Shown: positions 43,601 to 49,600 of the stretch, piece by piece | Layout of the letters: every line of letters begins with the position of its first letter | Numbering within the stretch: the first letter of the stretch is position 1 | Assembly (NCBI GenBank): GCA_012295275.1 | Contig: CM022665.1 | Location: 30,380,001-30,444,000, forward strand | Source of the DNA: Chrysomallon squamiferum | Taxonomy: Eukaryota; Animalia; Mollusca | Direction: 5' to 3' | DNA length: 64,000 nt | The notes under the pieces: model-generated | The model's input: only the letters and a program-made list of their open reading frames with translations | The model's database searches: none | Told to the model about the DNA's origin: nothing | Program-made: the position numbers and the translations under genes

Positions 43601-46600
43601 TCAGGCACTAAGCAAATTTTGTTGGGACAAACTATCAAACTAACCCACAGTTTCCATTGTATTCAAACTTCCCTTGATTAAGCTGCATAGCTAAATCAGA
43701 AGTCTGGAAGTTTAGAGACACCATCTGACATCCAGCATTCCAGAAAATCTAAAGGGAATTATTGGTTAATGAGTTAGTGTTTTAAAGAAAATAGAAATAG
43801 TATTTTAAAAATAAGCAGAATGTTTTAATAATTCTTGATACATTTTAATATTAATAAATATTACACTTTTTATATGATGATATGAGACAGAAATAGCACT
43901 ACAGGGTATTCCTACTGATTAGCAATTGGGAATACTTTGTAAGTACCGTCCCATAAACAGGAAAAACTTTCTGATAAATCATTTTGAAAATATATTCAAA
44001 AGTTTATTTAGATGTTGAATTTGCAGATGAAATACAAATATGTCATACAGTAAAGAAAATGTAGTTTAATGATTAATTTTTAAAACTGTGTTGAAGAGAA
44101 ATCTGATAAGTCAATGAAAAGATTTTAGAAAGGTTAATCTAAAATTTTAAATGGTGCTTGAATGTCATGAATCATTACAATTATAAATAAAGCATCACAT
44201 AAATAAATCTATCTAGTATCTAATTTTAATTCATGTCTGAATACCAACTGTTTTGCAAACATAATCATAGTCTGGCTGTTAACCTTCACACAGAACAACA
44301 TTTTTATGAACAATAAAACATATTTCTATTGCAGCTATGAAAAATATTCAGCATCTATCAATCTGTATTACATAAATCAACTGTATGCTAATATTTTTAG
44401 CATGATTATAAATATTTATAAATATATTTTTGTTTAACCACCGATATGTTTTCTTTGTAATAATAACTCTTTTTAGGTTTTTTTTTTTTTTTTTTTTTTT
44501 TTTACCCTATTTTCAAACTGTCATTTTGTTTGTAATAATTATTAAAAAAATTGAAAATAATATAATTTTAACCTACCTGTGGCATATAATTGCTAGAATC
44601 CACTCTTCCTCCTTTTGGGTAGATTCTACTCATCTGTCGTTTGTTATAGCTGGGAGGCAATTAAGGCTTTTTTCTCATAAACAATATATATGTGTATATA
44701 TATATATATATATACATACAATTTTTTAAATTATGTGTGGTTAATTTTTTGTATAAGGTATAAAACTAGTAAGAAAAATATCTAAAAGAAAAAGACATGC
44801 CACTATGCCATGCATAAAAAACATTTAAGAAATACAAATCTAGAGATCAAAAGAAGCATTATAATATTTCAGTATTCATGGAAAATATTTTATTTCCAAG
44901 GCATCTTTTAGGATGTGGCTGATGAAACTAACTCATGACTGTTTTAACACTTTCACAGATAAATTATACTGAAAAAATAAACAAGTAATTCATGTTACAA
45001 AAATTAATACTAAAATAAGTTTAAAAATAAAAAATTATAAAATATATAGCAGTAGAATTAAACTGGTGAAGAACCAATTTTATTATTATAATCCTTAAAA
45101 CTTTTTTCTCCAAAAACAAATTCCATTACATAATTTTCATTTAGATTTGGGATTTTATTAAACCAATATATATATATATATATATATATTAATGAATAGT
45201 TATAAAAACTGTTAAATATACTCAACAAAATTTTATATCACAAAATTAATAAATCTTTCAAATAATTATATAAATCAACAAAATTTTAAAAATAAATAAT
45301 AAAAAAATATATATATTAATCTAAGAAAAGAGAGGACACCTTCTATTGTATATACCACCAGAAATTACAAGAAGTTACTGCACACACTGAGAAACAAAAG
45401 ACAACAATCATGCAAAAGAAAAGGATACTCGACAAATTTATCACACCTGTGCTTGATGGTGCTTAGTGCTGCATTCTCGGGGAAAGACGACATGTGGTAA
45501 TGGAATCGCTTCTCTACACAGGGAAACAGACAAACAAAATATATGCAAAAAACAAATGCACAAAAAAAGAAGAGAATTTTTTTTAATAAAAAAAAAGCAA
45601 AAAAAAAAAAAAAAAAAAAAAACTGAATAAAAACATGAACAAAACGATAATGAATTATCAAACAAAATGCATATTTTACCACTACAAATATGAAATCAAA
45701 TTATATTAACCTGTGTATTTTTTTATTTTAATGAAATCATTGTAACTGAAGGGAATTATGATTTAGACTACTTAAATAATAAACTCAGATTATAAACTAT
45801 TATTGACTGCTTATAACTAAAATATGATTTTGGTAGTCTGGTTCAAACAGGAAATATATTAGAGAGAGCATCAATTAAAATAATTTATATAAATTTATTA
45901 TTAATCTCAACCCCATCACCTCCAGTTCCATCACATGGATGAGAGGATGAGAAATTTAGTGTTATAATTTTGTACATTATTATGAAAAAAACCAGTGTAA
46001 AATTGGAATGGGAAATACAGTAGAGATCTCACTTATAAAGATAATTTGCATGAACTATCATTAATGTTTATCCCTCCCAACTTCAGTAATGGGATGAGAA
46101 ATTATGCATGTTAATTTTACACATTATTTTTGCCAGTAGTATTATTAATAAAATTATAAAATAAATAGAAAGGTGTAGACAAAAGTTATTCAAGTTTTAA
46201 TTTCTTTTATACTTAGATGTTAAAATTGAATGATAGCAATTCTAAAGTTAATAGAGGTTCAGCTTATTTCATGTTCATAAATTAAATTTTTATATAAGTA
46301 CAGATTCTTCAAAAATGCATCAGAAAACTATAAAGTATCATGTGCAAAATTAACATGCACACTGCAAACAAACCATGCTATTACAAACTGTTATCTACAC
46401 AGAACAGAATAATACTTGTAGTAAAAATCATGCAGGCTTTAACTATTTATATCTGAATATCAGCTGTTATTTCTTTATGTGGGAGTCTGCTAATTTTTAT
46501 ATTTATAAAAATTACATGTAAGTCTAATACATAATTCTATATTTCAGTAATAACTGTCATGAATTTGTAACTCTATTTAATTAACAAAGTTTGAACGAAT

Positions 46601-49600
46601 AAAAATAAATCAGTAAATAACCACAAAAAATCAAATAAAATACAAAATATGGACAAACTAAAATAAATTTAAAAATAAAACAAAATAAAATAAAATAAAT
46701 TAAAATGAACTGCAAAGGAGATTGTTATGAGGATTTAAAATTGATGTGAATACATTTTTTAAATATTACCATGGCAATCCAAAAGATGTAAAAATCAATT
46801 TAATATATGTAATTTCTAAATCCTATATATATCTGTTTGGGGCCTTTCAGAAATTAAAATACAGGTATCGAGTTTAACTTCGAAGAATACATTAAACACA
46901 ACTTCCATTTGTCCTTATTATTCAAAAAAAAGTAATGAATATAATTTATCATTATAATTATTTTCTTTTATCTTTTTTTTTTTTTTTTTTTTTTTGTAAA
47001 TGTACCACCATTTCATATTTGGTTTAACCATACAGTTGAATATAAAATATAATTTAATAATATTTCAAAGGAGAATCATTACCTTATATGAGCAATTAGT
47101 GTGTCACAATTCATGTAATTATTATGCTTCTGACATGCTGACTTGACAGAATACACCAAATATTTTATTCATTAACTACTAGAATACATCTCACAGCAAA
47201 TTATTTATAATTAAACTGAACATTTTAAATTATGGAGGTGTTATTTTTGCATATAACTTGTTACAAGTTAGTCATTTCAACAAACATTTAGTATAATTAT
47301 TGTTAAATATGGGTGTTGGATGATATATAATTAGGTGAATTTATTATATTCAGTTAAACAATAAAATTTAAATGAATGAAGTAATATTTAGCAACCCAGA
47401 CCTCAAAATATTATTATTATTACATGAAACCAACTAACAATTTAACAGTTGTAAAAAAATAATAATAATAAAATAAAATATATATTGTAGAATAGTAATT
47501 AATAAACATGACTATAAGTTAACAAGACAACAAGCTGTACAAAACAGATGACCATCTACTGAATGACAACATGGAAAAGCAAATATATCTCAACAAGAAA
47601 TATAAACTAATGTTACTGTTTTTTTCACTGCTTATTCCAGTCTTTTTTCTCTGTCTTCTTTATATATTGTTTTACTTTTCTTTTCTTTTTTTATTTGTTT
47701 GTTTGTTTGTTATTAGTACAAAACAACATGCCAAATGCAAATTGAAAAAGAAGAACGATGAAAAATAAGAAGATGAAAGGATACTTCACTAGTTCGATAG
47801 CTTGGGTCTTGAGATAACCAAGACCTGTGTTTTCGTTGAATGATGACATGTGAAAGTGAGAATTCCGCTCTGAAACAGTACCAAGTAAATAACATTCTCC
47901 TAAAAACAACTTTCTCTTTTAGTGAAAATTGTTAAATTAACATTCTCCTATAAAAAAATATAACAAAACACAACAAAACAACCTTTCTTTTTCAGTGACA
48001 ACAGAACACTTTGCAAAACAGCAGTTGCAAAGAGTTGAAGGAAAACACCCCAAAACATTTTGGTCTGCTTCAGCCATACCATCTTCAGAAATGTTTGCCA
48101 ACGTTATTAATAGATTTTATAATGTAGTTACATAAAAGAAGGTTTTCACAACGAACTGCTAATAATCATGTGGTCGTGTTAATAAAATAAATTGCTAAGC
48201 TTCTGAGAAAACAGATTATTGTGTATACTTTTAAATAGTTAATCTTTTCTTTTCTTTTTTTTTTTTTTTTTGAATTCAGGTTTTTTTTTCGTCTTTTGTT
48301 ATTAAATGTTTACCCTAATTTTAGTTTATGTTTGATGTATTTTGCAGCCTAGTCATTTTTGTTATTAATTTCCTCCAGAACAGAATTTATGTTTGTAAAC
48401 TAATGCTTAGACTGATTAATTCAGCAGAATGGTATAACTAATGCCACTAATGCCATTATGGTTTAGCTGGTTTATCTTTTTTTCCATAAATTACAATATA
48501 CATGTAAAAATCTTCAGACTGGTATGTTATTCAACAGCCAATAGCCTTAGATTAAAGGTTTGCCCTAAAACATTTATCACCAGTATCACTGAGTTATTTG
48601 CAAGAAGACAAATAAAATGATAAAGTTAAATGACATCAACACATCTGTGAATCATCATATCAGCTCTAAACTCAAGTGAAAGCAAAATTTTAACACTGAA
48701 CAATGAAAGCCATGAAAATGAATGAATTCCCATCAAGACTTTTTTATAAAAATATCATTAATATAAACCTTTTTATTAAATAATAATATAATTTCCCAAC
48801 AGGACCTTTTTATTAATATTTACAGATGTAATACAGTGTAGCTTAATAACAAAGAACACATTTTATTATGTTACAACTCAAAAAATGAAAGCAATTACAC
48901 TGAGATGAAACATTCTGTTGAGAAATTATCATGAATTATTTTGGCTCTTTTACCTTCTGCAACATCAAAACCCTGGAACTTGACTGGCTGTGCGTAGTTC
49001 ACCATAGCCGAGAGATAGGGGTGGATGTTGGTAGTGGCACCAGTGTAGTGATAGCTTGACATCAACGCTGCCTCTTCATCAGCTGTCAAAGTACCTGACA
49101 AATCACCACTGGTTGTCTGAAAAATAAAATAATCTAGAGGTAAGATACAACACAGGTGATTGCAAAGATTTCTATATAGACCAATTAATGATGAATATAA
49201 ACATTTGCTAATGTATTAACTGTCATTTAATTACAATAAATGCCAAAGAAAATGATAACCATATATTATTAAAATGTGTTTGTATGGATATATTAACAGA
49301 TGTATTAATTTATCTGTTTGTTAACATCAACAAATTTGTACTTAGGTCTTGAATTTATGTATGACTCTGTGTATGTATGTGTATTTATACTTTAATGAAT
49401 GTAATATATATATATATACACACACATATATAAATGCAGATACAGTTTAGAAGTAATGATATATCCAGTAAGAATTACTTTTCAGAAATGCAATGAAAAA
49501 TAAAATAAAATGTTTTACAAAACCTTTTTAGCTGATATTTTTATTGAGACATTGCCCTTCTTAACTTCAATCACAGATGGGTCAATATCTGGAGTTTCAT

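Follow-up and report, generated by a model that had tools for sequence, protein, structure and literature searches.

A duplicated PLC-beta4 exon with interlocked major- and minor-type splice sites in Chrysomallon squamiferum: an independent, ancient case of the rare JNK/TMEM87-type layout

We describe two tandemly duplicated 85 nt exons, designated A and B, in a PLCB4/NorpA-like phospholipase C-beta (PLC-beta) gene of Chrysomallon squamiferum. The gene lies in a window of 64,000 nt, the whole stretch of DNA that was analysed (contig CM022665.1, positions 30,380,001 to 30,444,000). Each copy has a major-type (U2) acceptor and a minor-type (U12) donor. Removal of the intron between A and B would call for both spliceosomes at once, and we consider it probable that the two exons are kept mutually exclusive in this way. 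The splice signals, the four legal joints in RNA and the reading frames all follow this arrangement, and the same layout occurs in four other animals; from these observations we infer that spliceosome incompatibility is the cause of exclusivity. The pair is a real feature, and an independent and ancient case of a rare layout known from JNK and TMEM87.

All of the exons concerned are on the minus strand. The upstream constitutive exon U (48954..49116) encodes the end of the X-Y linker and the start of the Y domain, and RNA joints were found at both its ends. Exon A (47785..47869) is the ancestral-type copy and exon B (45429..45513) the derived, lophotrochozoan copy; both have a major-type acceptor and are joined on both sides in RNA. 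The shared downstream exon D (44577..44649, 73 nt) contains an SRIYP motif and is placed by sequence, RNA joints and homologue alignment. These coordinates were proposed in an initial annotation of the window and all held when the sequence was re-checked. Exons A and B are identical at 44 of 85 nt, encode the same residue at 11 of 27 whole codons, and are tandem copies coding, in a common reading frame, for one part of the protein; no third copy was found between U and D in the window. The exon length is 3n+1, and, as predicted for double inclusion or skipping, the combinations U-A-B-D and U-D run into stops, whereas U-A-D and U-B-D are open.

Splice sites were graded by consensus match. Minor introns are defined by the donor (A/G)UAUCCUUU and the branch site UCCUUAAC, the latter 10–20 nt (best 11–13) from the 3' end (PMC8199999; here and below, published work is cited from parts of the papers concerned). 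The sequence GTATCCTTT follows exon A at 47776..47784 and exon B at 45420..45428. Both donors match (A/G)UAUCCUUU at 9/9 positions and have a base other than G at −1, in full agreement with the minor-type assignment first made for them. GTATCCTT occurs twice in the window when both strands are searched, and the two occurrences are the ends of exons A and B; 0.03 copies of GTATCCTTT would be expected by chance in the 4304-nt region. Exon U ends in the major-type donor gtaaaa, also as annotated, and the other five RNA-checked PLC introns in the window start gttttg, gtaaaa, gtaggt, gttagt and gtattc. Branch sites were scored against TCCTTAAC (out of 8), and the best scores were 6/8 for the acceptor of D, 5/8 for that of A and 2/8 for that of B. 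The description of the A and B acceptors as ordinary is borne out by these scores, and by the finding of CTTRAY in 0/45 acceptors of homologous exon copies. The shared acceptor of D (44650..44667) holds the minor-type branch site GCCTTAAT, with A residues at −13 and −12 from the intron end; its U12-like character is supported on this basis, which is weak as a lone test.

The stretch is contained in five runs, one of them (X5, share 0.77) from a second study. The RNA evidence consists of assembled contigs from the other four, all of one study; the contigs cover intron sequence too and give no levels. Each of the four junctions predicted in the annotation was present. The joint U>A (48954>47869) was found in three of the four runs and U>B (48954>45513) in all four, with a short side of up to 89 letters. 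The joints A>D (47785>44649) and B>D (45429>44649) were each found in three runs, with short sides of up to 73 letters, and all four joints have GT-AG ends at the predicted bases. The joints A>B (47785>45513) and U>D (48954>44649) were absent from the eight joints listed, in contigs that show presence and not absence. One contig of run X1 (47785-48178) extends from within the upstream intron through exon A, which is joined to D; it represents either removal of the minor intron with the upstream major intron retained, or an alternative start.

Under the mechanism that we propose, the first join, of U with either A or B, would be made by the major spliceosome, and the second, of the chosen copy with D, by the minor one. 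If A were chosen, B would be removed within a 3135-nt minor intron; if B were chosen, A would be removed within a 3440-nt major intron. The 2271-nt intron that separates the copies starts at a minor donor, ends at a major acceptor and would not be excised as a unit, in keeping with the general incompatibility of minor and major sites (PMC3584512). Any leak, giving both copies or none, would shift the frame and be cleared by nonsense-mediated decay. Steric interference, for which the criterion is fewer than 50 nt between the donor of the first copy and the next branch point (PMC5740500), was ruled out by the length of the A-B intron.

Nonsense-mediated decay is also the basis of a rival explanation, in which the A+B and skip-both RNAs are made and then destroyed, and the minor donors are inherited passengers. 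We regard this explanation as unlikely. An exon of 85 nt shifts the frame, so that degradation of wrongly spliced RNA could leave the same pattern of joints, and both illegal products do carry stops. The B exon of pectinids is five codons longer and has kept its frame, as the rival would have it. Of 629 human clusters of mutually exclusive exons (MXE), 60% are frame-shifting and only 5 (0.79%) are U2/U12-incompatible (PMC5740500). The remaining evidence on this rival comes from genomic loci in other animals.

Metagenome contigs were scanned for the beginning of exon D preceded by AG or AC, the only splice signal built into the pattern. The scan returned 112 loci, 62 of them with at least one upstream exon copy, and two more at a lower threshold. 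Six loci have multiple copies and represent four animals. Two of these are bryozoan-like (L003/L016 and L012/L076, placed with Bugula and Watersipora at a support of 99.6) and two annelid-like (L020 and L028, the latter grouping with Paralvinella, 88.5, and 90% identical to Lamellibrachia). All nine distinct donors in the multi-copy loci begin GTATCCT, the branch scores of D are 7–8/8, and the upstream donor is major-type in three of the four animals, the three showing U. Across all loci we found 44 distinct exon-donor sequences, of which 34 are minor-type (31 GTATCCT and 3 GTATCTT) and 10 major-like; all 10 major-like donors are in loci with one copy seen, and the branch motif accompanies none of them (0/10). 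CTTRAY is present in 15/30 D acceptors behind a minor donor and 0/10 behind a converted donor, among rows that are related. Extra RTATCCT/RTATCTT sites in the loci were ruled out as exon ends.

Against the passenger account, 11/11 distinct donors of multi-copy arrays (two in the window and nine elsewhere) are minor-type, versus 10/44 converted overall. The conversions are all in one-copy loci, but most belong either to a single annelid-like group of paralogues or to other PLC-beta paralogues and may represent few independent events, so that the contrast is suggestive only. The decay rival also draws on the age of the intron: single-copy loci carry GTATCCT, as do other PLC-beta paralogues at the same position (L004, L018 and L036), and the minor intron is therefore older than the duplication. 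In the annelid-like group itself, a set of one-copy PLCB4 paralogues (L021, L022, L032, L033, L057, L059, L064 and kin), the branch motif has been lost and the donors are converted to gtatgc, gtaagt, gtacgt and gtgagc.

Two other arrangements of the same intron were seen among the loci. L028 has three tandem copies of the alternative exon, all ending GTATCCTT (13704-13788, 12548-12632 and 10519-10603, minus strand), of which L020 has the last two; the exon tree puts the second and third copies of L028 with the A-type exons, and these two may be later duplications. In L023 (4435-4507 and 3551-3623, minus strand) and L036 (2146-2218 and 3025-3097, plus strand), which are 96.5% identical, it is exon D of a different PLC-beta paralogue that is duplicated. 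The upstream exon of these loci, with one copy seen, ends GTATCCTT, and each D copy has a minor-like branch (CTTTAAC, TTCTTAAC) and a major-type donor. To judge by these signals, L023/L036 looks like a mirror-image interlock on the same intron.

The distribution of the two exon versions was read from the corresponding block in 30 protein clusters, with at most 15 members listed per cluster; the proteins are annotated isoforms, which makes absence a soft result. A-like and B-like versions are both present in 17 of 18 lophotrochozoan clusters. The gastropod clusters with both are Gigantopelta, Haliotis, Patella, Pomacea, Babylonia, Aplysia and Biomphalaria; the others are Crassostrea/Magallana, Mytilus, pectinids, Mya, Dreissena, venerids, Octopus, one octopus-like cluster, Lineus and Owenia. 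The homologue check suggested in the annotation, across molluscs and annelids, thereby found both versions in mollusc clusters and in the annelid Owenia. The Tubulanus cluster shows the B-like version only, among the members listed, and the single proteins of Lingula and Chaetopterus are B-like. Outside Lophotrochozoa (vertebrates, echinoderms, hemichordates, onychophoran, spider and insects), a second version was found in 0/12 clusters, again among the members listed. Three further observations were made on these proteins. The partial Biomphalaria model P0197, with A then B and read-through between them, was rejected as a case of co-inclusion and judged to be a mis-prediction that shows order only. 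The Bulinus model P0009 misreads the junction too: it continues across the donor with K-Y-P, the residues expected from GTATCC. In the hemichordates Ptychodera (P0027/P0220) and Glandiceps (P0065/P0232) it is the upstream exon U that comes in two versions, which makes it a candidate for a separate exclusive pair adjacent to this site.

Sequence conservation differs between the versions, with mean identities of 0.83 for A-A and 0.68 for A-outgroup comparisons, and 0.51 for B-B and 0.44 for B-outgroup comparisons. The greater variability of B would suit a reading in which B is a decaying pseudo-exon and A alone is functional. B is, however, spliced on both sides in RNA, has M-S-S-F-x-E in 17/17 sequences of standard length, and has annotated counterparts in molluscs, a nemertean and an annelid; the RNA joints and conservation contradict the pseudo-exon reading, which we consider extremely improbable. 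Cysteine occupies, in 16/17 B sequences, a position that is mostly alanine in A. In the scallop proteins P0208, P0211, P0213 and P0215 the pectinid B block is five residues longer, with the frame kept.

In an exon tree of 60 rows, 23 B-type rows (molluscs, nemerteans, Owenia, Chaetopterus, Lingula and bryozoan-like loci) are set apart from the outgroups and from every A-type row by a branch with support of 96/92. Grouping of the mollusc A and mollusc B exons in one clade was rejected (p-AU 0.028, tested after the tree had been seen). The simplest reading of these sequences would be one duplication in an early lophotrochozoan, more than 500 million years in the past. The old minor intron was likely in place behind the exon at that time, and its donor was duplicated along with it; A would have kept the ancestral sequence, and B would have diverged in the helix after the invariant M-S-S-F-x-E, likely altering regulation more than catalysis. 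The initial annotation had suggested an independent origin by tandem duplication of an exon with its U12 donor. The pair is indeed unrelated to JNK; it is not peculiar to this genome, being common to lophotrochozoan phyla.

Several points weigh against exclusivity through interlocked splice sites, our preferred explanation. An ordinary acceptor of the same gene, at 43748, scores 7/8 for the branch, which makes the branch score non-specific; the branch match alone is therefore weak, and the donors are the strong evidence. The acceptor of D is also pyrimidine-rich, and in one bryozoan-like locus exon B ends in AG before the weaker donor GTATCCTAA, a feature described for 'minor-like' introns. 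Contigs from one study drop rare forms, and the short side of the U>A joint is just 28 letters in all three runs. The exon tree has 29 columns and its bootstrap is unsettled. Frameshift decay predicts the same missing joints, and the action of the minor spliceosome at the A and B donors is deduced from their signals. In MAPK12, impairment of the minor spliceosome is reported to lead to joining of a major donor with a minor acceptor, and CENATAC has a shared 3' site (PMC8329584); these cases indicate that the lock is not absolute. The claim in the annotation that exactly one exon is used through spliceosome incompatibility therefore stands for the signals and the four joints, and needs softening as to how strict the lock is and how directly its cause is seen.

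The choice between A and B is likely set by tissue-specific RNA-binding proteins, as we propose. A TGCATG element lies 15 nt after the donor of B (45409..45414, minus strand) and is a lead towards an Rbfox-type site, GCAUG being the Rbfox element (PMC11874969); other TGCATG candidates in the window are at 46434, 46359 and 44814. Five multi-copy regions contain 20 copies against 7.1 expected (a post hoc count with 8 hits from L020), and 20 single-copy regions contain 19 against 18.1. This excess could also be taken to mean that, whatever the spliceosome, each cell type shuts off one of the copies through RNA-binding proteins or through RNA pairings that compete, a rival that we think very unlikely. 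The two bryozoan-like loci show no motif excess, and RNA-binding proteins would explain the choice of copy, a role compatible with interlocked splice sites. For competing pairings, L020 and L028 share a 99-nt element, 85% conserved, in the intron before the second copy; it holds TGCATG, and stops or indels argue against its being an exon. Nothing in the window matches the element, and no convincing pairing partner was found for it. Of the 194 inverted repeats in the window region, the longest 25 consist of low-complexity runs of A/T.

The host gene occupies 37536..63968 on the minus strand, its 5' end lying beyond the window. A tblastn exon chain (63968 to 37536) tiles the PLCB4-like proteins of Gigantopelta (P0001/P0122) from residue 124 to the end, with 93.1% identity over 1016 positions outside the alternative block, and trees place the two as sisters with full support. 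The EF, X, Y, C2 and C-terminal regions are collinear with named PLCB4-like proteins, and the gene groups with PLCB4/NorpA; the identification as a PLC-beta was thus upheld and refined.

By alignment, with no gap assumed, the alternative exon corresponds to PLCbeta3 610-638 and PLCbeta2 562-590. In both copies the second serine of the exon is conserved; the R and Y of the SRIYP motif in exon D follow it by 27 and 29 residues. For active-site residues we adopt the numbering Ser522, Arg549 and Tyr551, which we take to be that of PLCdelta1. These three residues contact the inositol ring of the substrate (PMC12195575), and the equal spacing to R and Y suggests that the second serine is the equivalent of the substrate-binding Ser522. 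The B form is likely to be catalytic still, and to differ from A in regulation or packing. PLCbeta2 peptides 564-583 and 574-593 bind Gbetagamma and block Gbetagamma stimulation (PMC3268021). Their region is a Y subdomain helix, binding to which seemed to hold the active site off the membrane, and cryo-EM puts Gbetagamma on the PH and EF domains (PMC13626650); a Gbetagamma link of the alternative exon is a lead only. An AlphaFold model of the B-type Mya protein P0038 (50-row alignment) had pLDDT <50 over residues 606-715 and was uninformative on the exon. A search of exon A alone against the PDB gave no match, and a search with the B region returned 12 proteins, mostly arthropod, that gave no help in mapping B. 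Elsewhere in the window, a multi-exon gene at about 2300-22088 on the plus strand lies tail to tail with the PLC gene; from its motifs, we presume that it belongs to the voltage-gated sodium channel family.

Taken together, the results might be read as an ancestral lophotrochozoan interlock, at least as old as that of vertebrate JNK, that switches PLC-beta4 between two tissue-specific enzymes differing in the helix of the Y domain to which Gbetagamma binding was formerly mapped. Such an interlock would pin the minor intron, which would convert only in one-exon gene copies, and the same intron would have seeded the three-exon array of L028 and the mirror-image interlock of L023/L036. We put this combined reading forward tentatively, as possible yet on balance doubtful. 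If it is true, minor introns would be a recurring template for exclusive exons. The three-copy and mirror-image forms, if spliced as they look, would be new variants. A recent survey attributes the persistence of minor introns mostly to neutral drift, with regulated cases as exceptions. The present system bears on that question because one intron occurs with one, two or three upstream copies, or converted, and retention by interlock is thereby testable across genomes. An overlooked second form of the PLC-beta4 enzyme is also indicated in oysters, mussels, Aplysia and octopus.

The statement in the initial annotation that no such case was known for a PLC-beta agrees with our search, which found no PLC or lophotrochozoan case of interlocked exons in a literature mostly without subscription papers. 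The string 'PLCB' is absent from the 10 supplements of PMC5740500, as far as these were covered, and the parts of PMC10639083 and PMC11347168 consulted name no PLC or lophotrochozoan case. The A/B isoforms sit unremarked in RefSeq models. Within the phospholipase C family, a minor intron is present in 60% of human PLC genes (PMC6865273). The PLCB4/NorpA proteins of vertebrates, echinoderms, hemichordates and panarthropods differ in having one version of the block, among the cluster members listed.

In other genes, the prospero and dUrp twintrons of Drosophila are similar in that major and minor spliceosomes compete on one pre-mRNA stretch (PMC3584512, PMC8199999), and different in having nested or overlapping introns that alter exon ends, with no duplicated exons. 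Published exclusive exons locked by the spliceosomes are few, and those that we found are all vertebrate (JNK and TMEM87). Exons 11/11a of human TMEM87A/B, which are among the five incompatible MXE clusters noted above, are made exclusive by a major 3' site embedded in the downstream minor intron (PMC8329584, PMC5740500), in a gene other than PLC.

The layout is shared with exons 6a/6b of the vertebrate JNK genes, among which we count MAPK10. In MAPK8/9, two major-type 3' and two minor-type 5' sites are interlocked; the intron that separates the copies is a hybrid, and the copies are included exclusively (PMC8329584, PMC3584512). The PLC pair differs in being lophotrochozoan, in lying in the catalytic core of a lipase, and in having three copies in one annelid-like locus; tissue specificity has been shown for JNK and is proposed here for PLC. 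The JNK gene and exon are unrelated to the PLC pair, which therefore represents an independent case. At least four animal phyla have retained this pair, and the enzyme whose catalytic core contains it is a central effector of G proteins.

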